In this document: one piece after another, positions 9,020 to 50,462 of the stretch
How positions within the stretch are numbered: the first letter of the stretch is position 1
Layout of the letters: the number at the start of each line of letters is the position of its first letter
Virus record (IMG/VR): IMGVR_UViG_3300029267_006021
Source: a virus
DNA length: 64,000 nucleotides
Direction: 5' to 3' (one strand)
Position numbers and translations under genes: made by a program
Notes under the pieces: generated by a model
The model's input: the letters and a program-made list of their open reading frames with translations, nothing else
The model's database searches: none
Told to the model about the DNA's origin: nothing

Positions 9020-9718
9020 CTAAGATAGAGTATTCGTTGTTAATCCGGCATTCCCGGCAACATACCTAAGTGAGTTTGCAATTGCTCCGCCAGCAGTACT
9101 TGCGATGCCTGCTGGAGCATTACCTGATTCAATCTCCTCACCATAAATACTAGCACCGTCAATAACATCACTGGCTACAATCGTAACATTTTCATTAATA
9201 ATCGTACTATCAGCCTCATAGGATGTTCCCCAACTAGACATCCAACAAGCTTCAAAGAAAGTGAGTAGGGCTCTTCTGGTTCCATCTGAAGCGGCTACTG
9301 TACCAGGACCTGTTGCAGTCTGCTGCTCAGCATAAGCTAGTTCTGAGAAAATAATCTCTTGTTTAACATCAAATGGCCATCTGTGGTGTTTTAACGACCG
9401 AACTAAACCGTCAATACCACCGCGATAACCAAATGCTTGAAAAACATTAGAAAGATAAAGAGCTGCTCTTGTAACTGAAAGCTCAATTGGGTCTTCAACT
9501 TGAGGCACTAGCTCAGCTATCTGGTCACCAAAACCAACACCCCGAATAGTCTCTACTGATCTACTCGAACTTGGAGCAAAAGATCCTAATACTCCAACTT
9601 GTCTAAACGTATTAACATCAGGAGCATAAGAAAAGATCTTTACTTTAGAAGATATAGCTGCTCGAGTATTAGGAGTTGTGCCTTCCCTAAAAATGTAGGA
9701 ATCACGATCAAGCGCCAT
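9020..9718 (-). CDS. Tail tube protein
   Basis: RSVETIRGVGFGDQIAELVP...WPFDVKQ...FEACWMSSW; tube-like pattern, strong SD (GAGGAG) and late-type box at 9759-9771. Confidence 0.75.
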   Translation of the reverse strand: MALDRDSYIFREGTTPNTRAAISSKVKIFSYAPDVNTFRQVGVLGSFAPSSSRSVETIRGVGFGDQIAELVPQVEDPIELSVTRAALYLSNVFQAFGYRGGIDGLVRSLKHHRWPFDVKQEIIFSELAYAEQQTATGPGTVAASDGTRRALLTFFEACWMSSWGTSYEADSTIINENVTIVASDVIDGASIYGEEIESGNAPAGIASTAGGAIANSLRYVAGNAGLTTNTLS

Positions 9719-12085: not shown

Positions 12086-12165
12086 CCGTGAATCCCTTAA
12101 CAGAGTTAAAAATCATTTTTTAAGAAGTATTAGTGAATTATGAAATGACAAAAATTAAGAAGGAG

Positions 12166-12216
12166 GTGAGATCACATTAGCTAAAGCACATGGCTTTCTT
12201 TGTTTTGATCATGTAA
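12166..12216 (-). mobile_element. IS200/IS605-type right-end / omegaRNA 3' remnant, copy 1
   Basis: AAAGAAAGCCATGTGCTTTAGCTAATGTGATCTCAC; 48/51 nt identical to 27278-27328; ends in TCAC. Confidence 0.7.
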
Positions 12217-12792: not shown

Positions 12793-15700
12793 TAAATTCT
12801 CTAACAGTTAAACATCCAGGAAGAATCTCATTATTCTCGTCTCTCTGAAGGTCACTCGATAATTGGCGGGTCCGGATTATTATCTTTCGATCTGCAAAAA
12901 GATCTTTATTTAAGGCTTTTTGAAGCATTTGAGCACGAACTGCAGGGATGTTTTGGTCAAGGTCAATATCTTTGATTTCAACTGAGATACCTAAGTTCTT
13001 TAAATAGCTCTCAATAAGCAAACATGTAGTCGTCTTCCCAACACCGGGTTGGGATGAAATATCGATGTAGATTTCATTCAGCATGAGATGATTCTTTCAA
13101 AGATTCTCGAGGTATATTGTGAACTCGTTTGCTCCAATCTTTTGGCTCTAAATGTTCTTGCCATCTACCTGGCATAGACATGTTGCATCTCTCGCATTGA
13201 CGAACGCACCATTTGTTAGGAAACTCAGCAGATGATTGTGGCTTTCTCTCGCCGCCTTCTGAGGTGCCTGGATCATCAGGAGCAATAGGCACTTCATCAT
13301 CTGCATACCAAACAACATCATCTTCATTATCTGATAATTGCTCATGAGGTCTATCACTAATCCCCCATGCCTTGTAACAGTTACCATCACAAACTACTTT
13401 AGCTTTTTGACCACAATACCAAATGATATCTTCAGGCATTAGAGCCTTCCTCAAGCATATAATCTGCTTCATATGGATTTGAGTCATTATGGCACATCCA
13501 TTTAGCAATTTTTTTCTCTTTAACTAACTGTTCCAAAGCATTCCAGAAATAAGGATGGGTGTTAGGAATCTTGATCGCGTCAGCAAGAGTACAATGATTA
13601 ACCCACTCATCATGCGCTGAGTCACCTTTTATGCACTCTTCTTTTTTCTTTCGAAGATATCTTAAAATCTCTCTTTTAACCTCATCTATTTGCATCTCAG
13701 TTTGTCTCTTTACGAATGCTGCTTCAGACTTGAGCGAAGGTCCTCCTGGGGTTCCACCCAAAGAGTCCATTGCTTCTATAATGCCGAGTGGGTCATATGG
13801 ATCATAACTCATTTGCTGTATTCTCGATCTAAAGTACAAAGTGCCTTAGAAATTTTATGTGAGGGCCTACGCTTCTTTTCTTTACCTCTCCCTCCTACGT
13901 CACTTAAAGGGCATTCATCACAATACATAATGTGGTCTTCGTCATGATTATGAATACACTTTCTAGCAATCTTGTCTCTTGCCCATTTAAGAGCAGATTC
14001 AAGAACTTTGATCTCTCTTCTAAGAGCTTCGTAGTCTTTCTTTGTTCTTAAATTGTTAAACTCTTCTTTTGTAAGGATATAGTACATTATGACTCCTTAG
14101 AAAGATCTTGAATCTTTTGCTCGATCTCTTCTAATGTTTCTTCAACAAATTTACGAACTTCAGCGAGTGAAAGATTTTTGATCTGTTGTAGGATATCTCG
14201 TTGTGCGAGGAAATGAACTAAAGCAGCATCTTTTTCTTTTGATTCCATCATTCACCTCATCGGTGATAAAAACATCCGGGCTTATGATTTGGATCTCTTT
14301 TCAAGTTCTTTATTGAGATAATTCAAGATATAATTCTCTTTGTTTCTCTTTGCTTCGGCAATCCAATTGCGTAACGCTGAAAGAGGGACATAAGAAGTTG
14401 CTTCACAAAACACACCATTAAAAGGACAACGTTCACTCACTACCCAATCTTTCTCGAAATGTCTATTTAACTCCTCTTCAAGCTCATAATTGCGTAATTT
14501 TGGCCATTCATATTCATGAAAATAGCGAACAAAGTTAGCATCGAGTTTCTCTCTCTGCTTTTCCCATAGATCTGACAATTTGCTTATTGCTGCTGACCGA
14601 GAAATAAGGTTAGGATTATCCATTAACTTTTTGTGCTACCTCAATGCATTTTTCACAAGTTACTTCTTCTCTTTTAGCAGACCAACGAACAAATTTTGGG
14701 TCCTCACCACAAAGGGTTAAATCTGGAACACTAATAAGGCCTTTCCAATGGACCTCACCATCTAAATGGGAGTTTTCAATCCAGGAACCTTGGGGATTTA
14801 CAGGTTGCCCAAAAATAAAGCTATTTTTATTCATCATTCACCTGTTTAGCAAACTTACCTAGAGATCTTGAAAGGGCATATCGAGCGTCATTAAGAGCAT
14901 CCTCTACCCGCCACACTTCTTTTAAGTCCATAACTCTTCTATAATCTGCCAGCCATTTTTCACAAGACTCGACTAAAGTACGCAAATGATCAGCATACAG
15001 ACATCTTACCATGAGGCTTTCTTTACCTTTATTGGCAAGATACTGTGGCCACCATTTTGGTTTACTCATTATCTTATTCTACTCATTCTTATCAGACCAA
15101 TTTTTGTCGTATGTGACAGTTCCTCCTGGACCTTCTTTTCGAATGTCAGGGTCCTCTTCCCCTTTCAAATCTCTCTTAGAACCTGGGCATCCTTCATCAT
15201 TTTGAGGGCAAAGCCCAATACACATGAAAAGAAAAGTACCAAAAAAAGAACCAATCCACTCAAAAAGATCTTCCATAGTCATCTCCTTTAATCTGGGGAG
15301 TCCTCATCTTTAAAACTATATTTAGATTCTTCTGGATCTTTCCAGAATTCAAAGGCTTTACCTTCCATCATACACGCACGATACTCTCGTTCTTCTTCAA
15401 TTTCTTCCCTTGCTTCCTTGCTTCCATAACAAACGCCATCCCAAACCTGCTTAAAATGCTCTAATTGGAAAATGTACTCCTCATCTAGAATCTTATCACA
15501 GATATGACAAATGAAACGACCATTTTTAGGAGTTGGAAGCCAAAAATGTTCTTTCTTTGCTAAATATTTAGAACGTTCTCTATTAAAGGCTTCTTGGTGT
15601 TCTTTTTTAACACCTAAAATTCGAGTGCGGTATTGCTTATATGTTTCTCTTATTTTGATTTTTAGTTCTGTTTTATTTGGGCCTGTAGCCATTTTAACGA

Positions 15701-27076: not shown

Positions 27077-27515
27077 TATTGACCAAATGTATCTTTAAAT
27101 GCTTCGTGAAGTACATTAAATTCTATTACAGTGAGTCTATTTTTAAGACGATTTAAAATCTTCTTTTTAATGTGATACTCTTTCATTTCTTTTTGATAAA
27201 TTTCTAGCACTTGAGTGCGATACCAAGCAACAAACAACTTTTTCAGCCAACAACCTGTGCCAGAACAACTCCTACAAGTGAGATACCATTAGCTAAAGCA
27301 CATGGCTTTCTTTGTTTTGATCTTGTAATTTGATTCATAAAAGCATGTTCCCCAAGCCCAGGTTGAAAAGATAGAGAGGTAATCTTACCATATCCGTCAC
27401 AGTGAACACAAGGGTATTTACCATCTTTTGGAAGTCTTCCAAGACTTCTAAAAACACGAGCCTCTTCTAAATTTTTGTAGGTTTTCTGTGGTTTTTTAAT
27501 TTTTAAAGCTTTCAT
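27076..27515 (-). pseudogene. CxxCxGxG zinc-finger gene split by a 101-bp insertion
   Basis: Removing 27278-27378 restores ...CVHCDGYGKITCRSCSGTGCWLKK... in a 112-aa open frame. Confidence 0.85.
27278..27378 (-). mobile_element. Non-autonomous IS200/IS605-type mini-element (omegaRNA-like), copy 2
   Basis: Inserted 3' of TTAC, no target duplication, terminal hairpin CCATGTGC-TTTA-GCTAATGG, ends in TCAC. Confidence 0.8.
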
Positions 27516-28239: not shown

Positions 28240-29130
28240 CTAAGGCTCATAGTCCCGGTTATATCTCCCGGACACCCTCCTGTCTTTAAAATTGCACTCA
28301 TTTTGTTTAGGTCCGAAGACTGCTTTAAAATCTTCCCCAATAGATTTCCAATCTGAAGCAAGGGCTTCTTGATTTGTTCTATTTAAAATGCTATGGACAT
28401 TTGGGTTGTGAAGGCCACCCGAAAGATCAAAAAGCGAACCTATACCTTTAAAGAAATCTCTTATTTTCTGCATTATTTAAATCTCTTAAATTCTAACATT
28501 TATTTTACAAAGATTTAACGTTTTAGCCAATGGAGATGTTCAGAAATCTCGTTTGCTTTAACAATCTTATGTGAACTCATCTCTTCGTATATGTGAGATC
28601 CCCAAACTCTAATAACTTCAACTATACCATCTAGATTAAGCCAAATAGAAAGTTTCTTCTTGTTGAGCCAAACTTCTAAAATTGTTTCTTTTTCCTCAGT
28701 GGTAGAGATGAAGAATTCTAAGTTCTCATCTTTTAAAATTTTCTGTATAATTTCTAACATTGTGAATCTCTGGTATTAGCCAAAATGTTAATGGTCAAAT
28801 CATCGGATAAGTTGTATGTCCAGAATGAATAATTTGAAGACGCAAAGTGATAGAATGCACAGAGCCAAAAGGAAGTACAATAACAACCCCATTGTCTCCT
28901 TCGCGATAACAATCAAATTTAATTTCTTCATCTATTCGAGCAAAATAACTTGCTAAAAAATTCTTAAGTTCTAAAATGAAAGATATATAGAAGGTTGGCT
29001 TCATTAGAAGACCTTCATAGCGATTAAAAAACTCATTAAGATCTTTCTTGAATTTTTCTAAGCCTGCACTTAGAAAAATTTCATAACGAGCTTCAGGTGT
29101 TAAAGGATTTGGATTTTTAAGTGTGTTCAC
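28240..29130 (-). other. Small hypothetical genes
   Basis: ORF track (28240-28473, 28515-28760, 28795-29130). Confidence 0.6.
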
Positions 29131-29287
29131 TGTCCAAATACCTTAAAAAAGCAGTTGCGATTTCTTTCTTTATCAAAAGGTGTGCTTCATGGTCGTTGAA
29201 ATCACCAATACGATGTTTGGTTGCTTCTTATATGATTTCTTGGACTTCTTTTTTGATTTGTTCACGGTTCATGAATGCCCTCCTAAT

Positions 29288-29374
29288 TGGTGGAGGCGGC
29301 GGGAATCGAACTCCCAAGGGCTATTAACCCCGGCTGTTTTCAAGACAGCTGCCTTACCGTTAGACTACACCTCC
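29288..29374 (-). tRNA. tRNA-Ser(UGA), aberrant T-stem, encoded CCA
   Basis: GCTGT-CTTGAAA-ACAGC anticodon arm, long variable arm, ends CCTCCACCA. Confidence 0.85.
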
Positions 29375-32955: not shown

Positions 32956-33028
32956 CTCGGGAGGAAGGGTTTGAACCTTCAACCTTCCGGGTCAAAGCCG
33001 GACGTTCTGCCAATTGAACTACTCCCGA
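32956..33028 (-). tRNA. tRNA-Gln(UUG)
   Basis: TCCGG-CTTTGAC-CCGGA anticodon arm; U1-A72. Confidence 0.95.
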
Positions 33029-33065
33029 TCATCTTCTTTAGGAATCTCGCGATATTTAAGATTAA

Positions 33066-33222
33066 GTTAGGACACCAGACTTACGCCTCGTCACCTAGGC
33101 AACTTCAAGAGAAGTTTGCTTTTGTTTGTTAGCAACATAAGCTACTAACTCACTCATCTTAACCCCACTTCTTTCAAAGTCAGGTAGCCTTATTCTCTTT
33201 GGGTTAGACGTAAACCCACTAG
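33066..33222 (-). ncRNA. Predicted omegaRNA of TnpB-1 (scaffold overlaps the gene's 3' end; guide about 33066-33085)
   Basis: Conserved at nucleotide level with 38439-38573, including a compensatory stem change; identity ends after TAGGTGACnnGGCGT. Confidence 0.7.
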
Positions 33223-34471
33223 ACAGTCGAGCAATGGCAAATTTGCCATTGCTTCCCTGCTTACTTTTGATTGCTATGTTAGCAGCCCCATTCACATCAG
33301 CATTGATTAGAGTGCCTTTAGAGGTCCCGAACAAACCTCTATGAATACGTTTACCTAGATAAGTAGTGTGTTTCTCTGGGTACTCTTCATCTAAGAAACT
33401 ACACTTGGATGTGTAAGACTCATCTTGAAAAATTAGTTCTAGACCATAGATTTGGCACTTGTGTTTAAGTTTTTGTTTGAAATTGGCGAATGGTATTTGT
33501 ACAAAGTTTTGATTGTTGATCTTACCTAGTTTGATACTTTGTTTGATCTCACTAGACCAGTCACCAATGATGATAGTGCCTATATCCTTTTGAGCACAAT
33601 ACTTGATAATATAGGAGACCATTTGATTTAGATAGTTATTAATTTGATTCTTACGTTGTTGTGTTAGTCTGATTAGTCTTTTTGAACTCTTTTCTAGTTC
33701 AACTCCTTTCTTCTTTAAAGAGTTCTTGTGCTTGATGTAAACAGTCTTTAACTTTGCGGTTTGTTTGTTCCACCATCTGTTGATTGATTTGAGTTCTCGC
33801 CCATCCAGAATAAACGAACGTCCAGATTGGCAATCCAAACAAGTGGCAAAGTTATCAAGACCACAATCTATACTTAAGAGATTTGATTTATCTAAGTTAA
33901 GATTAGTTTTTGATTCGTCATGTTCGTAAGTGATCGCTAGTTCAAAGTATTGAGCGTTGTTGTGTTGAATTATAGCTACTTGTTTGATTTTGCCTTTAAA
34001 TTGTTTTTTAAATGAAATCTTGATCTTGTAGTTAGTTTTTAGGTTATTTTCTCTACAGACTTGTTTTGATGGGTGAAAATAGAAATAAGTATCTGTAAAA
34101 TTGAAACTCTTCGGTGACAGATAGATATGATAATAACCATCTTTTGGAAGATAATGTGGCATTTTGACTTTACAGTGATAGTCACCTGATTTTTGTTTCT
34201 TCTTTAAAGCGAAGAATGATCTAAAAGCCCAATCTATTCGAAGTTGGATGTGTGCTGCAACATCTGATTTCATCCTTTGTGTTTCTGGTAGTTGTTTTAC
34301 TAAATTATGGCGAGCGTACATACCTAAGAACTCACCATTATTAAAGAAATGTTGTCGCGTTATATAAAGAACTGAATTATAAAAATTTTTAGAATCTTTA
34401 CACATTTGTTTAAGAAATAGATAGTCCTGTTTTGATAATTTCCTAATCTGAATTTTTTGTGTAAGTATCAT
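33095..34471 (-). CDS. tnpB: TnpB RNA-guided endonuclease (TnpB-1)
   Basis: RuvC-I SIDCGLDN; IIIGD with relocated Glu in QDESYTSK; RuvC-III NADVNGAANI; no tnpA nearby. Confidence 0.92.
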   Translation of the reverse strand: MILTQKIQIRKLSKQDYLFLKQMCKDSKNFYNSVLYITRQHFFNNGEFLGMYARHNLVKQLPETQRMKSDVAAHIQLRIDWAFRSFFALKKKQKSGDYHCKVKMPHYLPKDGYYHIYLSPKSFNFTDTYFYFHPSKQVCRENNLKTNYKIKISFKKQFKGKIKQVAIIQHNNAQYFELAITYEHDESKTNLNLDKSNLLSIDCGLDNFATCLDCQSGRSFILDGRELKSINRWWNKQTAKLKTVYIKHKNSLKKKGVELEKSSKRLIRLTQQRKNQINNYLNQMVSYIIKYCAQKDIGTIIIGDWSSEIKQSIKLGKINNQNFVQIPFANFKQKLKHKCQIYGLELIFQDESYTSKCSFLDEEYPEKHTTYLGKRIHRGLFGTSKGTLINADVNGAANIAIKSKQGSNGKFAIARLSSGFTSNPKRIRLPDFERSGVKMSELVAYVANKQKQTSLEVA

Positions 34472-34504
34472 ATCGATTATAATCGATAATTAGTAGAGTA
34501 TTAA

Positions 34505-34577
34505 TGCTCCAGGAGGGATTCGAACCCTCTTCTTCGGATCGAAAGTCCGAGATTTTATCCGATTAAACTACTGGAGC
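34505..34577 (-). tRNA. tRNA-Glu(UUC)
   Basis: TCGGA-CTTTCGA-TCCGA anticodon arm; GCTCCAG acceptor. Confidence 0.93.
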
Positions 34578-34579
34578 AT

Positions 34580-34936
34580 TCATAAAAATGGCTCCTCATC
34601 ATCTAACTCTTCTATTTGTATTCCGCCTTCTCTTAACCATTTGGCAACTATGTGTCTGTGACAAAATTTATCCTTACCTTCATAACACAACAAAATAGCA
34701 TCATTTCCTAGATCTTTAAGTACTTTTGTCGGCACAAAATTACGTTTTTTTATACATTCTAAATAGAGTTTTGTATACTCTTGTTCATTAATTTTACCTG
34801 ATTTTAGATCTTTGACTAACTGCATTGGTGGCCCAAGAAGAGGATAGTACTTACCTTTAAACCATTTTGGTTTTCCAGAAGTAATCGCGACTGCATTTGG
34901 ATTATTTTTACTTTTAGCGAAGTATGATGTTTTCAT
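34580..34936 (-). CDS. DUF488-like protein
   Basis: MKTSYFA...LGP...AILLCYEGKDKFCHRHIVAKWL. Confidence 0.8.
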   Translation of the reverse strand: MKTSYFAKSKNNPNAVAITSGKPKWFKGKYYPLLGPPMQLVKDLKSGKINEQEYTKLYLECIKKRNFVPTKVLKDLGNDAILLCYEGKDKFCHRHIVAKWLREGGIQIEELDDEEPFL

Positions 34937-35193
34937 TTGATCTCGATTTCTACGACTCTTTTAATTGCTTTAATTTCTAATTCTTCAGCCCGAAAAACAC
35001 GGTAATTTTCTAGCGTCCGGCTCTTGTCTTGCTCTAAACGATTTTTAATCCATCTGGAAGCAGCCTCTACATCCCCAAATTCTTTGATACCTTCACCATC
35101 ATCATCCGCATAACCATCTGAATAATGAAGCAGGATGGTACTCATTTTATTTCCTTAAAAAGATGTTGATTATACAATTATTATTTTTACATT

Positions 35194-35225
35194 AAACAAG
35201 ACCAGTAAACAAACTGGTCTTGTTT
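35194..35225. terminator. AAACAAGACCAG/CTGGTCTTGTTT hairpin
   Basis: 12-bp perfect stem downstream of a late operon; repeat of the 31430 hairpin. Confidence 0.75.
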
Positions 35226-35242
35226 GAATTTTATGTTATTAT

Positions 35243-35671
35243 TTAGAGTAGTGAATCCGAAATGATTTGCAATTTGTCTATAATATCTTGAGCGCCTTCC
35301 TTCGGATGGATAAACCACTCTCCCGATTTAAGTTTAGCGATGAGATCAGTTAAAGTTATATTTTTGGTGTTATCGTTCATGTCAGCAAACTCTATCTCTA
35401 TACTCTCACCATTGTCAGTATATCCATAAGCATCTGTATCAAAATGAGCAAAATATCCAGATTCGTAAATAGCCTGATTTGGATCACCCTCCTCTTTTAA
35501 CGCTTCTTGAAAATCGAGATCCTCAAATGTGCCTTTATCAACAAAACTTATGCCTGCAGGAGAACCGATTAGTTCTGCCAGATCGTTAATTAAGTCTGCT
35601 TTTTTTAGTATTTTAAGATCGTTAGCTAACTTTTTGAGTTGCTCTACGTCTGCTTTTCTGATTGGGTTCAT
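35243..35671 (-). CDS. Late acidic protein with LKKLA leader
   Basis: MNPIRKADVEQLKKLANDLKILKKA... Confidence 0.65.
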   Translation of the reverse strand: MNPIRKADVEQLKKLANDLKILKKADLINDLAELIGSPAGISFVDKGTFEDLDFQEALKEEGDPNQAIYESGYFAHFDTDAYGYTDNGESIEIEFADMNDNTKNITLTDLIAKLKSGEWFIHPKEGAQDIIDKLQIISDSLL

Positions 35672-35689
35672 TTTTTTTCTCCAAACTAA

Positions 35690-36505
35690 CTACTCATGGG
35701 GACTTTCAGTAAAAATTTCTGATTCGCGTTCTTTATTAAAAGTTATTATTGGTAAACTTAATTCTGATCTACGTATCTTATTAATCTCTCGAGATAAATT
35801 AGGAGAAACTTTATCCCAAAAATCTGCAGGTGTTTTAGCATTAAACTTTGCATTTAATGCTTCCCAACTAGTCTCCTCCATATTAATATACTCAAGTAAA
35901 GTCTCTTTATTATGATGCACCAAGCCTAAAACCCTATCAATTGCCGAGATCTTTGCGTCTAAATTTGAACCAAGCAGTTTGGGCTTATTTTGTTTAAACA
36001 TATCCCAGGATCTTTTCCATTGTCCTTTATTTTGTTGACCTCTAAAAAAAGGCTTTACATCATCTCTCTTATCCAAAACTTCATATAATTCATCGATTTC
36101 ACTAAACGAAAGATCCAAACTATTCAAATCCAAATCACCACAACCTACAAATTTACTAAGGTCAACATCTTCGGGTTGTTCATAAAGAGGCTTTTCAGAA
36201 TTATAGAGCCTAACTCCAGCTTCTTTGTAGAGTTTTTGGTATAATGAAACACTGCCCCCTAGATCTTCCCAATACTCTAAACTTGGAACTCCATCTCCAC
36301 CTATAAAAGATCTAACTGGATGATGTTGAAAAGTATATAAAAAAACGTCATAAATCTTAAGTGCAAAAGAATTAATTTCAGGCTCGAAGTATTCTTGTGT
36401 AAGGCTGCCTGAGATGGCATAAAAATCATAGATATCCTGATTGGTAATTTTCCCACTAGACACCAAAAGATTCGCTAAACGATAAAGAAGAGAAATTGTT
36501 TTCAT
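35690..36505 (-). CDS. Late hypothetical protein
   Basis: Likely start MKTISLLYRLANLL at 36505. Confidence 0.6.
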   Translation of the reverse strand: MKTISLLYRLANLLVSSGKITNQDIYDFYAISGSLTQEYFEPEINSFALKIYDVFLYTFQHHPVRSFIGGDGVPSLEYWEDLGGSVSLYQKLYKEAGVRLYNSEKPLYEQPEDVDLSKFVGCGDLDLNSLDLSFSEIDELYEVLDKRDDVKPFFRGQQNKGQWKRSWDMFKQNKPKLLGSNLDAKISAIDRVLGLVHHNKETLLEYINMEETSWEALNAKFNAKTPADFWDKVSPNLSREINKIRRSELSLPIITFNKERESEIFTESPHE

Positions 36506-36518
36506 TTTCCCTTCCAAA

Positions 36519-36683
36519 CTATCTTAAGCGGCGTCCAAGACCCCTACCCTGGCCAAGACCTCTCCCATAACCATAACCCCGACCTGGACCATAACTAGGG
36601 CCTCTCCTTCTAACGCATGGGCCTAAACCACGTCCTGTTCCTGGGCCTGTTCCTCGCGGGCCTGTACGATCTCTTGCTGGCAT
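36519..36683 (-). CDS. Small Gly/Arg-rich DUF5320-like protein (54 aa)
   Basis: Missed by the ORF track: MPARDRTGPRGTGPGTGRGLGPCVRRRGPSYGPGRGYGYGRGLGQGRGLGRRLR; AGGAGG SD; late-type box at 36718. Confidence 0.8.
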   Translation of the reverse strand: MPARDRTGPRGTGPGTGRGLGPCVRRRGPSYGPGRGYGYGRGLGQGRGLGRRLR

Positions 36684-36726
36684 TTTGACCTCCTATTTAA
36701 GTGTTTAATAAAAGATTATTAGTAAA

Positions 36727-36863
36727 TTATAGAATGAAAGGTATTTCTAAGTTTTGTTTTGCTTTCTCTAAAGCTTGGTCTAGATTCTTTGATTTCCAGG
36801 GCATTGTATTGCCGAAAGCCTCTCTTAACTTTGATTTTATAAACTTTTCGTTTTCATGAGGTT
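36727..36863 (-). pseudogene. Probable orphaned C-terminus of the 38557-40554 endonuclease
   Basis: Frame PHENEKFIKSKLREAFG...LEIPFIL* with no in-frame start behind the nearby SD; joins in frame to VVRYD across the TnpB-2 cassette. Confidence 0.55.
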
Positions 36864-36953
36864 TTGAACCTCTTGTGAGTCTCCTTGGTATCCTTAACCT
36901 TTGTCATTGAATTCTCCTCCAAAAATAGGAAACATTACAAAACTAACTTTTCT

Positions 36954-37082
36954 ATTATACAAAATGAATACTTAAAAGTTTATTTATTTATCACTTTTTT
37001 ATTAATTAAGACGGGCTTCAGAAATTTCTAAGATCTGGAAATTAGTTTCTACTTTAATTATACAAAATGAATACTAAAAGTT
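36954..37082 (-). repeat. Direct repeat ATTATACAAAATGAATACT(T)AAAAGTT x2, read as tandem sigma70-like promoters
   Basis: Copies at 36954 and 37057; each reads TGTATAAT on the minus strand. Confidence 0.7.
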
Positions 37083-37151
37083 AATATAATTAACGTTCTA
37101 ATAATTTACTAATTGGTTCTTATTTATGAATTAATAAAAGAGATAAAAATA

Positions 37152-38564
37152 ATGTATCTTGCACTTAAATCACAGATCAGAAAACTTAGTAAACAAGACT
37201 ACCTCATCATCAAACAAATGTGTAGAGATTCAAAAGATCTCTACAACAAATCTTTATACGAAGTCAGACAACACTTCTTTAAAACAAGTGGTCATCTCAC
37301 CTACTTCTCAAGATACAAACAGATGAAAAATCTTTCGTCTGTTAAGAGAATGAAGTCAGACTTTAGCATGCATGTACAACAAAGAGTTGATTTTGCCTTC
37401 AAATCATTCCTTGCTCTTGATAAAATGGCAAGAAATGGTGAGTATGATAAGGAAAAAGTAAATATACCACACTATCTACCCAAAGATGGTTATTATAACT
37501 TGTTTATGTCTCCGAAAAGTATTGGTTTTGATAGTGAGTATTTCTATTTTCACCCTACAAGTTATATCTGTAAAGATCTTCTATTGTCTCAGAAATACAA
37601 GATCAAAATACCTTTCACCAAAAAAATAGAAGGTATAATCAAAGAAGTTCAGATCATACCTAAAAATAATGCTCGTTACTTCGAACTCTTAATCACCTAT
37701 GAATATGATGAATCTAAAACTAATCTTAAACTAAATAAAGATAATCTTCTAAGTATCGATCTTGGGCTAGATAACCTTGCCACTTGTCTTGATCTACAGT
37801 CTGGGCGATCATTTATTCTGGATGGTCGAAAACTCAAATCACTTAACAGATGGTGGAACAAAGAGGTGGCAAGGTTAAGAGGCATCTATGAAAAACAAAA
37901 GAATAGTCAAAAGAAGAAAGGAGAGAAAGTTCAGAAAAGTTCTAAACAACTTGATCGGTTGAGTAAGTGGAGAAAGGGCCAGATAGGTAATGCTCTCAAC
38001 CAAATGGTGGCTCATGTTATCAAGTACTGTGCAAGTCATAACATAGGTACTATTGTCATAGGTGACTGGAAAGGCATTAAAGATGGTATTCAGATGAGAC
38101 ATGAAACTAAACAAAACTTTGTCCAGTTACCCTACAACTTGTTCAAACAGAAACTCTACTCCAAATGTCAAATGTTTGGACTTGGCTGTGAGTTTCAAGA
38201 AGAGAGTTATACTTCTAAGTGTAGCTTTCTTGAGCAAGAAAAGATCTGTAAACACAAGAAATATATGGGCAAGAGAATTTATAGAGGCTTGTTCAGAACC
38301 TCTAAAGGCATTCACATCAACTCAGATGTGAATGGTGCAGGTAACATAGGTGTCAAGTTCTTGTTAAATCAAAAACAAAGTCAAGATCTAAAACAACGTA
38401 TGCGAGGAGATCGGGTCATTGATCCGATTGAACTGAGTAGTGGGCTTGCGCTTAGCCCAAAGAGAATAAGGCTACCTGACTTTGAAAAGAGCCAGGTTAA
38501 GATGAGTGAGTTAGTGGCTTTGGTTGCTAATGAACAAAAGCAAACTTCTCTTGAAGTTACTTAG
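37152..38564 (+). CDS. tnpB: TnpB RNA-guided endonuclease (TnpB-2)
   Basis: SIDLGLDN, IVIGD, QEESYTSK, NSDVNGAGNI; clear paralog of TnpB-1; the only long plus-strand gene; ATG at 37152. Confidence 0.92.
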   Translation: MYLALKSQIRKLSKQDYLIIKQMCRDSKDLYNKSLYEVRQHFFKTSGHLTYFSRYKQMKNLSSVKRMKSDFSMHVQQRVDFAFKSFLALDKMARNGEYDKEKVNIPHYLPKDGYYNLFMSPKSIGFDSEYFYFHPTSYICKDLLLSQKYKIKIPFTKKIEGIIKEVQIIPKNNARYFELLITYEYDESKTNLKLNKDNLLSIDLGLDNLATCLDLQSGRSFILDGRKLKSLNRWWNKEVARLRGIYEKQKNSQKKKGEKVQKSSKQLDRLSKWRKGQIGNALNQMVAHVIKYCASHNIGTIVIGDWKGIKDGIQMRHETKQNFVQLPYNLFKQKLYSKCQMFGLGCEFQEESYTSKCSFLEQEKICKHKKYMGKRIYRGLFRTSKGIHINSDVNGAGNIGVKFLLNQKQSQDLKQRMRGDRVIDPIELSSGLALSPKRIRLPDFEKSQVKMSELVALVANEQKQTSLEVT

Positions 38565-38593
38565 GTGACATGGCGTCATATCTAACAACTAAA
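38439..38593 (+). ncRNA. Predicted omegaRNA of TnpB-2 (guide about 38574-38593)
   Basis: Hairpins TGGGCT/AGCCCA, TTAGTGGC/GTTGCTAA and AACTTC/GAAGTT shared with the TnpB-1 copy. Confidence 0.7.
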
Positions 38594-40554
38594 AAGAAGT
38601 AATCTCCATTGATTGCCAATTCTCTTTTAAGATAGTCTCTTTTCTGTGCCTCTTTAAAATGAATAATGTTTTTATGTATGTGATTTGGGAAGACAAAATG
38701 GTGATAGCCGTGATACTCTACAATTAAATTTAATGTTTGAAGATAACCATCATACAGAAACTTGCGACCTGTTTCTGGATTTCGAATTTCATTAAAAGAT
38801 TTTTCCTCTTTATAGGGCTGTCCAGTTATTTTAGAGATTAGTTCGAGGATCTGATGTTGTGTGACAAGATAACGTTTAGGTTTCAAACCTAAATGCTCCA
38901 TTTCCCTTCTAATAATTGGGCAGCAGAGGTTTAAACCTTTAATTGCCTTCGGAACGAAAACATCTCCCTTCTCATCGAGATAGGGCTTGAAATCTTCAAG
39001 ATTGAGGGTGATTAGTTTACTTGGAGGTCCTACCCAATTAGGGTCTGATTTCGTTTCAATTATTTTTTGAGTTCTCTTATATATGCGTAGATCATCAAAT
39101 TTAGTTAAACCCTTGCACCAGGAAGTTTGGCCTTGACGACCTTTAGAGGTTTTCTCTATGCGTGGATCAGTCTCTTTTGTTAATCCTTTAGACCAGCCAC
39201 CACTTTTCTTTTGTTTCTTTCGTATTTTAGATGAGACAAAATAAGAACCAGGGAACATTTTGCAGTAGTCTATTGTGGACATTTTATGTGTTTTAGTGAT
39301 ATGTGTGGCTAAGAATTGGCTTTTAAAATTACAATCGGATAGTTTACAATAGAGGTTACCATCTTTATCTTCCTCTCTAGAAATGCAATCATAACAAATG
39401 TTACCTAAAAGAAAATTTGGATCTTTTTGTTCTTGGCAAATAATGCAAAAATTAGCCTCTTCACATAAAATCTGTTGATCTGCTCTACGTTGTTTCACCT
39501 CCTCTAAACGATGATCAATTATTGCACAATTAGGCAGCTTTCGTTCGATATAGTGTTTAGAATGGTACAGAGATTCATAATCTTCTGTGGTTAAATTATG
39601 GTTGAAGCGTAGGTGATCTTTAAGATTGTTTTTCGTTCTAAATGGAAATCCTGATTTAGTTGTACATCCTGGAACCTTGCATTCTACATAATCTATGCCT
39701 TCTTTTTTATCTTTCCATTCTGCAAGATATTCCTCTTTAGCTATTACTTTTTTGCACTGTGAGCATAATAAAAAATGCTGAGTAGATGATTGATAAAGAG
39801 AAATCTCAAAAGACTTCTGACATCTTTCGCAAATGCCAGTCTTTGTTTTATCGTAGAAATCTGGGGGTCTGGAAGCACTGTCCTTCTGTATAGACTCTAT
39901 GCGTTTTTCTTCCGTTTTTATAGCGATTGTTGGCGAATTATACTTAGAGGTGTAGTCTGAAATTGATATCTTGTGTACACTGGGTAAGTGGCGTCGTAGA
40001 GTCGTCATTCGGTATTCCGAAAAGTGCTTGCCTTCCCTCTTGCATATCTGACACTCTACATAGTCTATGTTAATGCGTTTATCTTCCCATTTCTTAGATT
40101 CTTCTTGATTAAAATAATCTAAATGGGCTTGATCATTCTTTTTAAAAGCCATTCTTTTGATATGATTTGTGAGACCCTTAACATCTCGCACTCTAAGATT
40201 ACATACTGGGCAGAATATCTGTTCTTGTGATTTGTAATCTCTCTTTGATTTACATTTTGGGCATAGAACTTGTTTGAATCTTTTCATCTGAGATAAAGCA
40301 GATACAGTAGTAGAGAAAGTTTGATTACAGATCTGGCAGATGGTTGTTGTTTGTTTAGATGTTTTTTTCTTGCTGTGTTTCTTTCTCCTGGCATCTACAT
40401 CTTCCTTTGGGTATTCTTTTTTAAAGAGAGATGTGACTACACTTATTTCGAGATCAAATTGTTCGGCTACTTTTCCTGCTGAGAGATCTGAGCGAAATAA
40501 ATCTTTGATCGTCTGGTATTCTTCTTTGGTGAGACGGTTAATTGAGTAGCGCAT
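38557..40554 (-). CDS. Multi-zinc-finger protein with C-terminal PD-(D/E)XK/Vsr-like endonuclease, C-terminally truncated
   Basis: Repeated DYVECxxC...H fingers, WSKGLTKETD, FLYDGY...LIVEYHGYHH...RDYLKRELA; last codons (AMSPK) lie in the TnpB-2 end; promoter at 40572-40600. Confidence 0.8.
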   Translation of the reverse strand: MRYSINRLTKEEYQTIKDLFRSDLSAGKVAEQFDLEISVVTSLFKKEYPKEDVDARRKKHSKKKTSKQTTTICQICNQTFSTTVSALSQMKRFKQVLCPKCKSKRDYKSQEQIFCPVCNLRVRDVKGLTNHIKRMAFKKNDQAHLDYFNQEESKKWEDKRINIDYVECQICKREGKHFSEYRMTTLRRHLPSVHKISISDYTSKYNSPTIAIKTEEKRIESIQKDSASRPPDFYDKTKTGICERCQKSFEISLYQSSTQHFLLCSQCKKVIAKEEYLAEWKDKKEGIDYVECKVPGCTTKSGFPFRTKNNLKDHLRFNHNLTTEDYESLYHSKHYIERKLPNCAIIDHRLEEVKQRRADQQILCEEANFCIICQEQKDPNFLLGNICYDCISREEDKDGNLYCKLSDCNFKSQFLATHITKTHKMSTIDYCKMFPGSYFVSSKIRKKQKKSGGWSKGLTKETDPRIEKTSKGRQGQTSWCKGLTKFDDLRIYKRTQKIIETKSDPNWVGPPSKLITLNLEDFKPYLDEKGDVFVPKAIKGLNLCCPIIRREMEHLGLKPKRYLVTQHQILELISKITGQPYKEEKSFNEIRNPETGRKFLYDGYLQTLNLIVEYHGYHHFVFPNHIHKNIIHFKEAQKRDYLKRELAINGDYFFLVVRYDAMSPK

Positions 40555-40670
40555 GTTGACTCCTAATTTAAATTATACAAGAAGCAGTCGACGGGATCAA
40601 GGGATTTGTTAGGTTCAGCGGTTCTAGAGGCGGTTAGCGGAGCTGAACTGAAGAAAATTAGCTCAAAAAA

Positions 40671-40738: not shown

Positions 40739-43504
40739 CTATAATTTAGTTCTTAGTTGGAACTGACAAATGATCCATAAAAGAGGAAATACTGGCTGAT
40801 AAAAAGCCTCGACATTACATATCGTAGGATCACTCGCATCCACCTCGGCACTCACCCCCTTGTAATCACTTATAATCTCAGCCTGAACAAGCATCTTTAA
40901 TGTATTTGCGAGAGCTGTCTCAACATCACCTAAAACACTACTCAGGAATTTCACACCAATAAATCTCTGCAAGTTAAATCTTGCAACCTGCTGTACATAA
41001 TCAGCAATTGCTGTAACTGATGGAGTCCTCGTTAACACATTGTCTATCTTTGTCGTAAGTGATTGTCTGATAACTAAATTCGGATCGAGATCTTCGACCA
41101 CTGTCAAACCAGAAATGGCTGTCTGGTTCTGCTCAACAGAATCAAGTTGTCTTGTTAGTCTCTTAAACCCAAGCAGATACTTATTGGTCATTGGGGTTGC
41201 TACATCATACTGTGGAGATACATTTAAGCCAGCAAATGCAGCAGACATAAATGTACTATCAATCGCATACTCTTGTTCAGATCCATATTCATCAATTAAA
41301 CCAATTACTGCTCCATCTGGATAGATACCCCACATTCTTGAAGAATTGGTATTACGAGCAATTACTTGAGCCTCATTAGGAGTTGTTCCTAGCGAAAATC
41401 CAAAGAGGCCCACTCGCTCTGCTCTATAACGAATAGAACTCATCTGCTCAACATGAGCCTTCAGAGCAACACGAACTGAATCATCTGTGGTCAAGGGTAA
41501 TACGAAGTTCGGAAGATAAATTCTTTGTATAGGTTTTTCTAAATTTGTTAATGCGGTTATATAACTGGCTGGTGCTGCCTGGTTCTCACCAGTCTCTTTA
41601 AGAACTTGACAAAGGCCTAAAGCGATTGCACCATTCTGGAAGGCAAGATAAGCGGCGAGAGTCAATTCATTTGTTGTACTAAGGGGCCCAAAATCAGCTT
41701 CTACATCCTTAAATCGAGTGTAAATCTTACAAGAGTAATCTGTTTTAGCGTATTCATAAGTTACATAATAAAAATCACCGATACCAGGTTCATTGCCCGA
41801 TTTGTCGTAAGTACAAATTGTTGCAGTGTCTCCCACATTTATACCAGTCGTATTTATAACAATTGTCCAGAGTCCTGGAATCGACAAAATCGGTTGATTG
41901 CTTGTTGTGTGATTTGCGACTGTCTGGAATTGTAAGGTGTCACCTGTCTGATAAGTAACAGTGGAACCCTGTCTTATTGTAAATCTAACCCCAGTCGTTC
42001 CATCAATATAAGTCTTTTCCAACTCTCCTGTTCCTGAAGACCCACTTGGAGCAAGAGATGAAGTTACGCTATAAGTCGTAGACGAAGTAAAGGTTACTGT
42101 AACTATTTCTAAAGGAGAATATCCAGGTATTGTCTGTAAATCTGGGAATGATGTTGGGATTGCGCCAAGACCTGTTGGCCAAATGATGCCTTCTGTTGCG
42201 AAGTCTGGATCTGTAACATGATCTTGAGAACTGTTGTGGCGTAAGTAATAAACTGCCCCATTATCACGGCTTGTAATTTTATATGTACCAACGCCTGTAA
42301 CTCCTGGTGTAATTACTTCTAAATAATAGCAATCATCTGCCAAAATGTTATAGAAATAAGTTGCATAAACTTTATGCCCTACTGCTGGGGCATCTTTTGT
42401 CCAAACCTTTTTGGCGCTACCATCAAGCTTTTTGACTGTTACTTCACCAGCATTAAAAGCATTAACTGCGCTCGTACCAACAAATACTTTTATTTTGGAA
42501 GTATCATCAGTTACTAAATCTCTACCGCCTCCGTCAACAGGTTCGCGTGAAAGCGTAAATTCTTTAGTGCTTCCATCTCCCACACCCACTGGGTCCATAT
42601 AAACTACATTGTCAATTAAAGTGCGAGAGACTTGTGTGTCATCAAAATATTCATAACCTGGCGTATGTGTTCCAGCGCTAATAACAGCGGCTGCCCCCCA
42701 CTGTATTGTATCGTCTACAAGAACAAAATCTGTATCTTCAATAAAATCTGTTGAATCTGGAGAATAGCCCACTCTAATTATATCCGTGACATTTTTGTTG
42801 AATAAATCATCTCCAGTATCTTGATATCTATTATAGTAGTAGGTAACGAGTACTGTGGCGCCCGCTGCCGGAGCAGAACTCAATTGAAATGTTCCAGATG
42901 TACCTGCGATCGAACTAGGTGTAACTGTACTTCCATTAACCTTTACTGTAATATCTGCGACCGAATTTGTTATAATTCCACCACCTGTTCCATCAACAAT
43001 TGGTACATAATTTGTTTTAAAAACCTTGTTCGTTCCATCAGCCTGAGATGAAAGATCTTCATCTGCTATCTGAGTATCTGTTCTATTATAATAATAAGTT
43101 ATAAGAACGGTTGCGTCTGCTGCAGGTATTGAATCTAAATAAACAACTCCTGTAGCCCCCTGAACTGCTGAAACCCCAACAGGCTCATTATCTACAAGAA
43201 CAGTTACATCTCTTGGGTTTGTAGTAGTTTGTCCTTGTCCTGAACCTGTTACAATTGGAAAATTAGCAACAGTAAAACTTCGATTTGTTCCATCTAACTG
43301 GCTAGAAACATCTTCCTTTGAAATCAAATTATCAGCAATAGAAGAAGAGCCTCTAAAGAGTTCGTCAGTTGCTTCAAGAGTCTCTTTTCCAACACCAATA
43401 AATGCCGGGAATCTAATGCCCCCAGTAAAACTCGGCACAGTTTGATCAGTAAGGGTTCTAGTATATGGACCTGGAGGCACGTATGATGTAAAAGGACCGA
43501 CCAC
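40739..43504 (-). CDS. Tail sheath protein with inserted repeated beta domains
   Basis: N-terminal YVPPGPYTRT; C-terminal sheath fold (HVEQMSS..RAER, IRQSLTT, YQPVFPLLWI); late-type box at 43564. Confidence 0.9.
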   Translation of the reverse strand: MVGPFTSYVPPGPYTRTLTDQTVPSFTGGIRFPAFIGVGKETLEATDELFRGSSSIADNLISKEDVSSQLDGTNRSFTVANFPIVTGSGQGQTTTNPRDVTVLVDNEPVGVSAVQGATGVVYLDSIPAADATVLITYYYNRTDTQIADEDLSSQADGTNKVFKTNYVPIVDGTGGGIITNSVADITVKVNGSTVTPSSIAGTSGTFQLSSAPAAGATVLVTYYYNRYQDTGDDLFNKNVTDIIRVGYSPDSTDFIEDTDFVLVDDTIQWGAAAVISAGTHTPGYEYFDDTQVSRTLIDNVVYMDPVGVGDGSTKEFTLSREPVDGGGRDLVTDDTSKIKVFVGTSAVNAFNAGEVTVKKLDGSAKKVWTKDAPAVGHKVYATYFYNILADDCYYLEVITPGVTGVGTYKITSRDNGAVYYLRHNSSQDHVTDPDFATEGIIWPTGLGAIPTSFPDLQTIPGYSPLEIVTVTFTSSTTYSVTSSLAPSGSSGTGELEKTYIDGTTGVRFTIRQGSTVTYQTGDTLQFQTVANHTTSNQPILSIPGLWTIVINTTGINVGDTATICTYDKSGNEPGIGDFYYVTYEYAKTDYSCKIYTRFKDVEADFGPLSTTNELTLAAYLAFQNGAIALGLCQVLKETGENQAAPASYITALTNLEKPIQRIYLPNFVLPLTTDDSVRVALKAHVEQMSSIRYRAERVGLFGFSLGTTPNEAQVIARNTNSSRMWGIYPDGAVIGLIDEYGSEQEYAIDSTFMSAAFAGLNVSPQYDVATPMTNKYLLGFKRLTRQLDSVEQNQTAISGLTVVEDLDPNLVIRQSLTTKIDNVLTRTPSVTAIADYVQQVARFNLQRFIGVKFLSSVLGDVETALANTLKMLVQAEIISDYKGVSAEVDASDPTICNVEAFYQPVFPLLWIICQFQLRTKL

Positions 43505-46467: not shown

Positions 46468-48279
46468 AGCGCTTTAATCGTTGCATAATGTACTTCAAAT
46501 TCAATGCGAGGTAGTGTTGTCCACTTCTCAGGACTAATTTGATTTCGCTTAAAATAATCTTGTATTAGCTGATCCTTAACTGAAGTTCTACAATTGGTTA
46601 TCTCCCCATTAACAAGCCAAGTTCGCTTATCTATTTGTTTAAATTTCATCTTTTAAAGCTTCTTCCAGGAAATCTTCTAAACGAGATCTATTGAAAAAAT
46701 CAGAATCGATTATATCTTCAAAAATCTCATCAACGAACATCTGTATGATTTCCTGCTTATCTAAAGTTTCCCATTTCGCTTCATATTCCTCAGGCAAAAC
46801 TTGCTCGAGTTTTCTTTGAATCTTTGAAGCAATATTGTTATCAATTGTGAGACGAACCTGGGCTTCTTTTGAATGCTCTGTAAGATTTTCTATTAAATGT
46901 TTGAGTTCTGCTTTTTTCATTATAATCCCCATTCTGACAAAGTATAGAGATCAGTATATTCCCGATCCATAATCGGATCAAAAAACTGGGCAAGATTTGA
47001 ATAACTTCCATAAGACTCAAGAAGATCAGACAAACCAGATTCTTGAAGTTTTAAAGCCTCTTCTCTAGCACTCTTTAAAAGATCAAGTGTATCTTTTCTG
47101 GCTTTATGATCAATTTCTTTCCAAGGAACAATTAGATCATCTGGTTCACTTAAAACCTTACAAGTTCTAATCAATATCTCAAAAGCATATTTTTCATCTA
47201 TAATCTCTTCGAGTATTCGTTTAATCTCCTGGCACAAATTTAGATATTCTCTATGAGAGATTTTGTCAGCATATTTTTGAAGAATTCGACTAATTTGTTG
47301 ATCCATTTTCAAACCACAAAGAATAACTAATTTAGAGAGTATAAGTGTATTATTGAAATGGATTATGAAGATTTAGGTTTTCTTCCCCGTTTTTTAGGTT
47401 CTGGCTTTTTAGGTTGCTTTTCTTCTGGAGGTATAGGAGGGGCTGTTTTTGCTTTCTTTAAAACCGTGACCCAACGATCACGAATAGCATCTCTAAGAGA
47501 AGCAGATTTTAGATACTCGTCATTTGAAAAATCAGCTATTTCATTTTGTGTGAGTTTTCTTTTTAATTCTGGAATATTGAGTGCTTTTACATTACACCTG
47601 ACTTGGACTTCCATTTAAATCTCCTTCAAATCTAAATCTTAAGCTTCTTCGATTTCTTTATTTGTGACGTTGTAAGTCACTGCCCTAAAAGGGAAAGATT
47701 GATCTGTAACCAAATACACATCCATTTTCAATGTAGTCGGACCATAATATGGATTAAGGATAAACATCTCTTGTTGTATAGTGGCCATTAAGAATCTCCT
47801 CAATCCAAAAACTGTGGCATGTCTTGAATATTAAAATCTGGCATCTCAGTAGGTTCAAATGGAGCAAAAGTTGGCATATCTTGAATGATAATAAACACAG
47901 GCATATCTTCTAAAAGAATCTCTTCTTCATCGGCAATTTTTGAAGGCCTTTTTGCTTCCTCGAGCATCTTAACAACTTGATCAAGTTTTTCGGCAACCTT
48001 TAGACGAAGATCATAACTTAATTTGGTTTCATCTTCACTGACTACTTTTAAAGCAGGATCTTTATAAGCCAGTAAAGCATCCCAAACATATTTCATCAGA
48101 GAAAAGGGCGATCTCTTTGAATCAATAATAGAATTCATTTCTCTTTTGGATTGGTCATTTACTTTAGATTTATTAACAGTTTCATGTAGAAGATCTTGCA
48201 TTGGTTCAAGATCTAAACCCTCAAGTTGATGGGCTACATCTTCAAAAACTGATTTAAATTTCTTTCTAATATCAGCCAT
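46446..48279 (-). other. Small late-region hypothetical genes
   Basis: ORFs at 46446, 46639, 46920, 47363 and 47800; late-type box at 48316. Confidence 0.6.
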
Positions 48280-49664: not shown

Positions 49665-50462
49665 TTAACCACTAGACCGAACGAAATATTTACCCCGTAG
49701 AGATTCAGCAGCGGCTTCAAGTTCTGGATTATTTACACTACGAGCAAAATTGGCAATCTCCTCTCGCATGCTATTCAGCGTTTGTGAAACATAACCTCTA
49801 CTAATACCGAGGTCTTCTTGAATTTGTTGCCCAGTTTTACCCTCAAGAAGCATATCAAAAACTTTGCCGAATCGTTCTTTAGTTTCATATAGATAATTAC
49901 GAATATCCTTAACTAGTGTATTATATTCCGATTCAGTTTCAGCTGTGTCTCTGATATCTATAAGTAAATCAGCTGGGATACCGGCTCCTTCTTCACTCTC
50001 TTCTGTAATAATTGGAGCTGTCCGTTCATATTGTTTTTGTAAACGTTTTTTATAGTCAAAGATACGACTCTTGGTATTTGTAATAATCATATTATGTAAT
50101 TTACCCCGATCAGGATCAAAGCGATCAAGCCAATCAGGCAATGATGCCAAAACTTCAGCCTGAACTTCTTCTACATCCATACCTCTAAGGCCATATTTTC
50201 GAATAGTTCCAGAAACTAAACCCGTAATACTAAATCCCTCGCCGTCTGGAAGAGTCTCTACAGGTATACCTTTTTCTTTGACCTGTTCTATAAACCATTT
50301 ATCAATTGCTTTTAAAGTATCATCACAAAGCTTCTTAAAATAAGCAAAATGTTCTGAACTAACTTTTAAAGAAGACAGAGTCTTTAAAGCTTTGAGCAAA
50401 AAATTTAGAGCCATTCTTTGAGTTTCTGAAACTTTAGTTACCATTTTTGGAATCTCCTTCAA
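49665..50462 (-). CDS. Phage sigma-70-family factor
   Basis: Region 2-like DVEEVQAEV...RFDPDRGKL...IFDYKKR; region 4 HTH GKTGQQIQEDLGISRGYVSQ. Confidence 0.8.
   Translation of the reverse strand: MKEIPKMVTKVSETQRMALNFLLKALKTLSSLKVSSEHFAYFKKLCDDTLKAIDKWFIEQVKEKGIPVETLPDGEGFSITGLVSGTIRKYGLRGMDVEEVQAEVLASLPDWLDRFDPDRGKLHNMIITNTKSRIFDYKKRLQKQYERTAPIITEESEEGAGIPADLLIDIRDTAETESEYNTLVKDIRNYLYETKERFGKVFDMLLEGKTGQQIQEDLGISRGYVSQTLNSMREEIANFARSVNNPELEAAAESLRGKYFVRSSG

Follow-up and report, generated by a model that had tools for sequence, protein, structure and literature searches.

The DNA considered here is a window of 64,000 nt from IMG/VR virus record IMGVR_UViG_3300029267_006021, representing the reverse complement of bases 108,193-172,192 of a 194,001-bp phage contig, and genome-level statements in the current work cover this window. 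It contains two cassettes, each composed of a promoter-like box, a tnpB gene and an omegaRNA scaffold, whose best and most economical reading, which we adopt with moderate confidence, is that they represent transposase-independent RNA-guided homing elements of phages. A more specific version of this reading is put forward tentatively, namely that such cassettes have discarded both the transposase and the transposon left end, use a late-type phage promoter as their left end, and spread in large tailed phages purely by guide-directed cleavage and recombination, perhaps with TAA as target-adjacent motif (TAM).

The edges of the cassettes were set by comparing seven members of one clade, being the two of the window and five foreign members, all located on phage-like contigs (L002, L003, L006, L015 and L016; a second contig, L012, carries the L002 cassette and its near flanks). 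The order TAA, box, tnpB and scaffold end is shared by all seven, with lengths ranging from 1394 to 1475 nt and a right end that reads GGCGT in six members and GACGA in L002. Cassette 1 (33083-34500, minus strand, 1418 nt) comprises box, palindrome, tnpB-1 and omegaRNA scaffold and is preceded by TAA at 34501-34503, while cassette 2 (37102-38576, plus strand, 1475 nt) comprises box, tnpB-2 and omegaRNA scaffold and is preceded by TAA at 37099-37101. The stretch between box and tnpB measures 14-39 nt, with a ribosome-binding site that is absent or weak, and in five of the cassettes it forms a palindrome abutting or nearly abutting the ATG (imperfect in L015), the sequence of which differs between cassettes. 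At least five distinct contexts are represented among the seven cassettes. When 5.8 billion proteins were searched, only seven clusters among the matches listed were near TnpB-1, at 59-100% identity; after this clade come, again among the matches listed, archaeal or uncultured TnpBs that are 43-46% identical. No clade member was found in IMG/VR by protein, alignment or omegaRNA motif, and the omegaRNA motif was not found in 185,579 prokaryote genomes.

The tnpB-1 gene (33095-34471, minus strand) encodes 458 aa and tnpB-2 (37152-38564, plus strand) encodes 470 aa, with 60% identity between the two products. The start of tnpB-2 is the ATG at 37152, as also assigned by gene callers, rather than a TTG at 37113. 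Both proteins match the Pfam families OrfB_IS605 and Cas12f1-like_TNB (E 5e-18 and 4e-10 for TnpB-1; E 4e-17 and 1e-6 for TnpB-2). An AlphaFold2 model of TnpB-1, with a predicted local distance difference test (pLDDT) value of 83.5, was matched by Foldseek most closely to Cas12f, ISDra2 TnpB, ISFba1 TnpB and Fanzor2 (AsCas12f, E 2e-19; ISDra2 TnpB 8h1j, E 2e-14, template modelling (TM) score by target 0.75), and at the sequence level neither TnpB matched a solved structure. Among 40 homologues compared, no variation is seen at D202, D392 or E351, the last being part of an E-x-YTSK motif, and the place of the canonical RuvC-II Glu is taken by Gly303, in agreement with the earlier claim that RuvC D/E/D is kept with its Glu relocated. 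Judged by these residues, both TnpBs are of the RuvC-II-rearranged type with a putatively intact catalytic D-E-D triad, and both nucleases look active. Of the C4 zinc finger of the TNB domain, one Cys is left between RuvC-II and RuvC-III; loss of this finger is known for some large TnpB branches (PMC10691335), so that the C4 finger is no defining trait of the TnpB family.

Both TnpBs are under strong purifying selection. The ratio of nonsynonymous to synonymous substitution rates (dN/dS) of TnpB-1 versus its nearest relatives is 0.07-0.10, and gene-body dN/dS across the members of the cassette family is 0.07-0.19, at a dS that is saturated (1.3-5). In the last 50 codons of tnpB, where the RNA overlaps the gene, dS is down to 0.15-0.58, and the combination of a low gene-body dN/dS with this drop indicates that the protein and the overlapping RNA are both constrained.

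The omegaRNA-1 scaffold (33083-33266, minus strand) covers the last 57 codons and the stop of tnpB-1 and extends 12 nt beyond that stop, and the omegaRNA-2 scaffold is located at 38396-38576 (plus strand). Across members the scaffold measures 181-184 nt and is folded by RNAalifold into eight helices of 59 pairs in total, 16 of which show compensatory (two-sided) changes, with 96.8% of cells being paired versus 32-47% when the partners are slid. A covariance model scores omegaRNA-1 at 205 bits and, when applied to 179 kb, revealed no orphan copy; the omegaRNA is without a match in Rfam. Because the cassette ends with the scaffold, the adjoining flank would supply the guide, the position of which follows from TnpB biology. 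The predicted guide of omegaRNA-1 therefore occupies 33063-33082 (minus strand), the end of this scaffold being 54 nt from the start of a tRNA-Gln gene, and that of omegaRNA-2 occupies 38577-38596 (plus strand), antisense to the last native codons of a nuclease gene split by cassette 2. Only chance-level matches to the guides, with two or three mismatches, are present in the window and the fetched loci, and predicted guide 1 has no match in the 185,579 prokaryote genomes.

The box at the left end of the cassettes, ATAMTYTACTAAT (13 nt, at most one mismatch), occurs 14 times in the window versus 0.94 expected, a count reached by none of 100 shuffles. Nearly all of its copies are intergenic and face the gene that comes after, in most cases with a strong Shine-Dalgarno sequence downstream of the box; the motif is also present in the related contigs L002, L003 and L027 and was not found in L001, a more distant relative whose sheath is 47% identical. 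On this distribution the box is accepted as a putative phage-specific promoter-like element, for which late action is plausible. As originally claimed, one copy precedes each tnpB, at 34489-34501 (minus strand, ending 18 nt before the TnpB-1 ATG) and at 37101-37113 (plus strand, ending 39 nt before the TnpB-2 ATG). The accompanying claim that the same box stands ahead of the tube and sheath genes holds for the sheath gene (40739-43504; PHROG tail sheath match, E 9e-26), upstream of which a copy is found; the supposed tube gene (47800-48279, 159 aa) has no significant match in Pfam, PHROGs or Atlas that would mark it as one.

In cassette 1 the box is followed by a 16-nt perfect palindrome that abuts the ATG, with no Shine-Dalgarno sequence, and in cassette 2 the box and the approximately 20 nt after it show 74% similarity to a native box region nearby (36697-36730). 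TA stands immediately ahead of the box in all seven cassettes, as opposed to one of 11 other boxes of the window (hypergeometric p ~3e-4, hand-computed). Other genes are marked by a different, early-type motif, TTGTATAAT, and an outward-facing promoter of this type is also located beside the L006, L015 and L016 cassettes. A sigma-factor-like gene (49665-50462; PHROG RNA polymerase sigma factor, E 2e-9; weak Sigma70_r2), positioned within the structural block and downstream of a box, is a candidate reader of the box motif.

Comparison with related phages, which had been proposed as a means of finding cassette-free alleles, provided two cases at the DNA level and one at the level of gene order. 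The first (site A) is the empty allele of the L003 site, present in the window at 29211-29230 (minus strand), with TAA at 29228-29230, a target-like sequence from 29227 downwards and the junction at 29227/29228. Bases 1-68 of the L003 right flank correspond to window positions 29227-29160 (82%, E 6e-14), so that homology begins at the first base past the GGCGT scaffold end, and three positions (8, 9 and 12) distinguish the target-like sequence from the L003 guide. The same region (29117-29320, minus strand) contains, at the empty site, a 14-codon open reading frame (ORF) that ends in TAA, followed in the same frame by 36 codons that lack a start codon and are conserved with L003, mainly with third-position changes; in L003 the right end of the cassette supplies a TTG start and 12 codons.

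The second case (site B) is the site occupied by cassette 2, the empty allele of which is found in L027, a contig that is syntenic with the window, has no TnpB and carries an intact nuclease gene. In the window this zinc-finger and endonuclease-like gene (38557-40554, minus strand, 665 aa) is truncated by cassette 2: its native codons end at 38577 (38575 when the junction-straddling Asp660 codon is counted), and its last five codons and stop are provided by the right end of the cassette. The product is 65% identical to the intact 705-aa P0122 of L027 up to residue 660, and the displaced C-terminal 44 codons and stop (36727-36861, minus strand) align with the last 44 codons of the L027 gene, including the box that follows. 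The interrupting block (36862-38576) thus consists of cassette 2 and approximately 240 nt of extra DNA on its left, with one codon lost at the break, and its right junction is flush to within one base. The extra DNA (36862-37098) contains two outward-facing minus-strand copies of TTGTATAAT, a Shine-Dalgarno sequence and a 17-codon ORF stub; the segments 36954-36990 and 37057-37092, directly left of the cassette, belong to a 103-nt tandem duplication that carries TTGTATAAT on the minus strand. TTGAA was considered as a TAM and rejected, as this junction sequence belongs to the extra DNA and not to the flank shared with the intact allele. The candidate TAM TAA is present at all seven left junctions and at site A, though not at site B. 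At site C, which is known at the gene-order level only, a relative has a DUF488 gene (82% identical), two small ORFs and an HNH gene with no TnpB between them.

The gene split at site B encodes repeated zinc fingers and a C-terminal endonuclease-like domain, has an early-type motif upstream (40572-40580) and itself looks like a free-standing homing endonuclease gene. In L001 (12877-13910) fingers and nuclease domain are encoded by separate ORFs, and the latter is homologous to the nuclease domain of the split gene.

A box is present neither at the site A empty allele nor at the insertion site of the L027 empty allele, from which it follows that the box arrives and travels with the cassette; the possibility that cassettes landed behind pre-existing promoters is thereby ruled out. 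At both sites the right edge coincides with the end of the omegaRNA, as TnpB biology requires, the conserved sequence of the scaffold stopping where homology to the empty allele starts (within one base at L027). A flush right edge together with an unclean left side is better explained by recombination that co-transfers donor flank than by a transposase cutting at both ends, as judged from site B, the single fully visible case. Presence/absence polymorphism, homology flush with the omegaRNA and a cassette-borne box are features expected of a homing element, and on sequence grounds they make the cassettes good candidates for such elements.

According to the mechanism that we propose, the box would allow the phage transcription machinery to read the cassette, and TnpB would trim its own transcript into the omegaRNA, an activity known for the family. 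In relatives that co-infect or co-replicate, the resulting ribonucleoprotein would cleave the site corresponding to its own where the cassette is absent, after which phage recombination would repair the break from the occupied genome, thereby copying the cassette and some neighbouring DNA. Overall, this would amount to non-restorative homing with marker exclusion. If TAA indeed serves as TAM, its being a stop codon would bias insertion to positions just after genes. The original prediction that the cassettes spread or compete by RNA-guided cleavage is partly supported, namely by selection, the covarying omegaRNA, the box in seven of seven cassettes and the empty alleles that are flush at the omegaRNA end.

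Several observations weigh against this interpretation. The insertion of cassette 2 is not clean, given the approximately 240 nt of extra DNA on its left; TAA is absent from the left homology break (36861/36862), and in L027 the target-like sequence is directly preceded by GAT. At site A, the flank to the left of the L003 cassette shows no relation to the window. Every pair of cassettes is anciently diverged (dS > 1), and a cassette is present on each of the seven contigs sampled for this strain wherever a cassette site is reached, so that there is no sign of recent movement. The left end of cassette 1 (34476-34504, minus strand) also contains sigma70-like -35 and -10 elements that are spaced by 17 nt and include a perfect TATAAT; such a pair is likewise present in L002 and L003, and the box therefore need not be the sole promoter. 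This TATAAT forms the middle of the palindrome, and the 4 nt between its end and the ATG are too few for a translatable leader. In addition, an IS200/IS605-like mini-element lies within the window. Finally, homing alone leaves the first arrival at a new site with a flush right end unexplained.

One alternative treats the cassettes as IS1341-type IS200/IS605 elements that are non-autonomous and depend for their movement on a Y1 TnpA supplied in trans by phage or host; TnpB would then act restoratively after excision only, and the box would serve expression. Transposase cleavage gives right junctions such as those observed, flush within one base at both empty alleles; a palindrome is located near the left end, and solo TnpB genes are frequent among cellular relatives. 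The mini-element (27278-27378, minus strand, 101 nt), which is inserted in a CxxC zinc-finger ORF after TTAC and ends in TCAC, points in the same direction, as does its half copy at 12166-12216, a 94%-identical right half beside the box at 12129. Together with related copies in L002 (9768-9904 and 14389-14436), it suggests a second, TnpA-dependent element family active in the phage lineage. However, neither its ends nor its flanking TTAC and TCAC motifs bear any relation to the TAA and GGCGT of the cassettes. Consistent with the original claim, no window ORF of at least 90 aa matches a Y1 or serine transposase family, and tnpA adjoins none of the seven cassettes; as far as these searches can tell, the term 'transposase-less' holds for the cassettes and for the window. 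Shared transposon-type ends were not seen in the window either: similar left and right subterminal hairpins are lacking, the left palindromes being variable, missing in cassette 2 and dissimilar to the conserved right-end stem. Near-identical copies are also absent, the two TnpBs of this one genome being only 60% identical, and the left junction of the TnpB-2 insert is unclean. Mobilisation in trans is for these reasons considered unlikely.

A further possibility, to which we assign a still lower probability, is that the cassettes are domesticated and immobile, acting as fixed weapons against competitors with uninterrupted alleles or in another role beneficial to the phage (processing or regulation). 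The long-term purifying selection, the occurrence of the cassette on all seven sampled contigs of the strain wherever its site is reached, the phage promoter motif at the 5' edge, and a guide 2 that is directed at a homing-endonuclease-like gene of relatives would all suit such a role. Nevertheless, one clade in at least five contexts, with two lineages within one genome, requires movement between sites or genomes, the intact catalytic residues make a purely regulatory, TldR-like role improbable, and exclusion and homing can go together. The view that the cassettes are inert relics of old insertions with a coincidental upstream box, which would agree with the lack of evidence for recent movement, is contradicted by the selection and covariation data (dN/dS of 0.07-0.19 across saturated dS, constrained synonymous sites at the RNA overlap, compensatory changes in 16 pairs) and by retention of the box in every cassette, and is regarded as very improbable.

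The surroundings of the cassettes are those of a phage genome, the window encoding a tail sheath, eight tRNAs and many small genes, nearly all on the minus strand. Two of these tRNA genes, identified by ARAGORN and Rfam, border cassette 1, tRNA-Gln(UUG) being located downstream (32956-33028, minus strand) and tRNA-Glu(UUC) upstream (34504-34578, minus strand), where it ends 1-2 nt ahead of the TAA that precedes the cassette. With this tRNA ending at 34504/34505 and the TnpB-1 ATG at 34471, the gap is 32-33 nt, matching the 33 bp given in the original prediction. A homologue of this tRNA-Glu (76% over 78 nt), with the amber-suppressor anticodon CUA, directly precedes the L002 cassette (L002 9894-9968), and L002 also carries a transfer-messenger RNA (tmRNA) gene 2 kb downstream of the cassette (13366-13711). 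The stop codon of tnpB is TAG in four of the seven cassettes, and the L002 relative may read TAG as sense.

Both cassettes form part of a 29-kb block that further holds tRNAs, small genes, and HNH, GIY-YIG and DUF559 genes. In L001, which is too diverged for TAM reading, the nuclease gene is directly followed (13763-14082, compared with window 9700-38600) by a homologue of window 9020-9718; since L001 lacks the intervening DNA, the block represents an accessory insertion between structural genes. Another selfish element of the same genome is found just outside the window, at L017 8386-9762 (approximately window 64240-65615), where a 458-aa product with an intein splicing domain is encoded.

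The presence of TnpB in phages, the commonness of solo tnpB genes and a homing role for TnpB in bacteria are already established. New is their combination in a clade seen only on phage-like contigs, with a phage promoter motif as conserved left end, few translation signals and documented empty alleles, one of which lies inside what appears to be another selfish nuclease gene. 'Non-restorative homing' with co-infecting phages as targets is a theoretical type in a 2026 review, and transposase-free TnpB homing has so far been argued from plasmid experiments, being theoretical only for phages (PMC13565253). The cassettes bear on the persistence and movement of TnpB genes without tnpA, which are very abundant, as they offer a natural case with defined edges, a covarying guide RNA, a phage-promoter left end and identifiable empty alleles. 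With edges, guide RNA and empty alleles known, every component of a direct homing test (donor, target and guide) is specified, and as compact RuvC-II-rearranged TnpBs with a known scaffold the two proteins are useful for characterisation. If the reading as homing elements is correct, an RNA-guided class would be added to the phage homing endonucleases.

Among known systems, the TnpB-omegaRNA pairs of the IS200/IS605 elements ISDra2 and ISFba1, for which a homing role in transposon retention has been described (Karvelis 2021; Meers 2023, PMC10055086), resemble the cassettes in fold, in domain order and in an omegaRNA that overlaps the 3' end of tnpB; in both the guide is drawn from the right flank, which makes the empty site the natural target. 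Unlike those elements, the cassettes have no TnpA partner or recognisable transposon left end and carry a phage promoter motif instead, their RuvC-II is rearranged and their zinc-finger cysteines are lost, and the proposed target is another phage genome rather than the sister chromosome. In their RuvC-II they resemble the RuvC-II-rearranged TnpB branches (RIIr), some of which are enriched in viruses (Altae-Tran et al. 2023, PMC10691335), sharing with these a Gly in place of the canonical Glu and a conserved Glu at another position, directly ahead of YTSK, although the nearest cellular proteins are only 43-46% identical among the matches listed.

The cassettes share the absence of tnpA and a short left end with IS1341-type solo tnpB genes, from which they differ in being a clade seen on phage-like contigs only, promoter-capped, single-copy per site and with empty alleles in relatives. 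Genes for TnpB are common in phage genomes, for example in Lak, epsilon-crAss, Nodularia and Helicobacter phages, and the phage TnpBs of the collection searched are 32-38% identical to the clade among the matches listed and below 60% in all 39 records. The tnpB of cyanophage A-1(L) is induced during infection and is identical to host IS copies, which points to a recent pick-up (10.64898/2026.02.14.705889). Unlike that gene, the members of the present clade share a phage-specific 5' end, and their cellular counterparts among the matches listed do not exceed 46% identity.

A parallel in lifestyle would be with the homing endonuclease genes of T-even phages, as in both instances a nuclease gene is located between or inside conserved phage genes, shows presence/absence polymorphism among relatives, and is associated with a phage-type promoter and an untidy co-transferred flank. 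The free-standing Seg and Mob genes belong to this group, and I-TevI is expressed from late promoters. This likeness extends to the neighbourhood, the same window region holding HNH, GIY-YIG and DUF559-type genes. In contrast to the T-even endonucleases, target recognition by the cassettes would be achieved by RNA and not by protein, and self would be told from target by the edge of the element itself, not by sequence divergence of a nearby gene.

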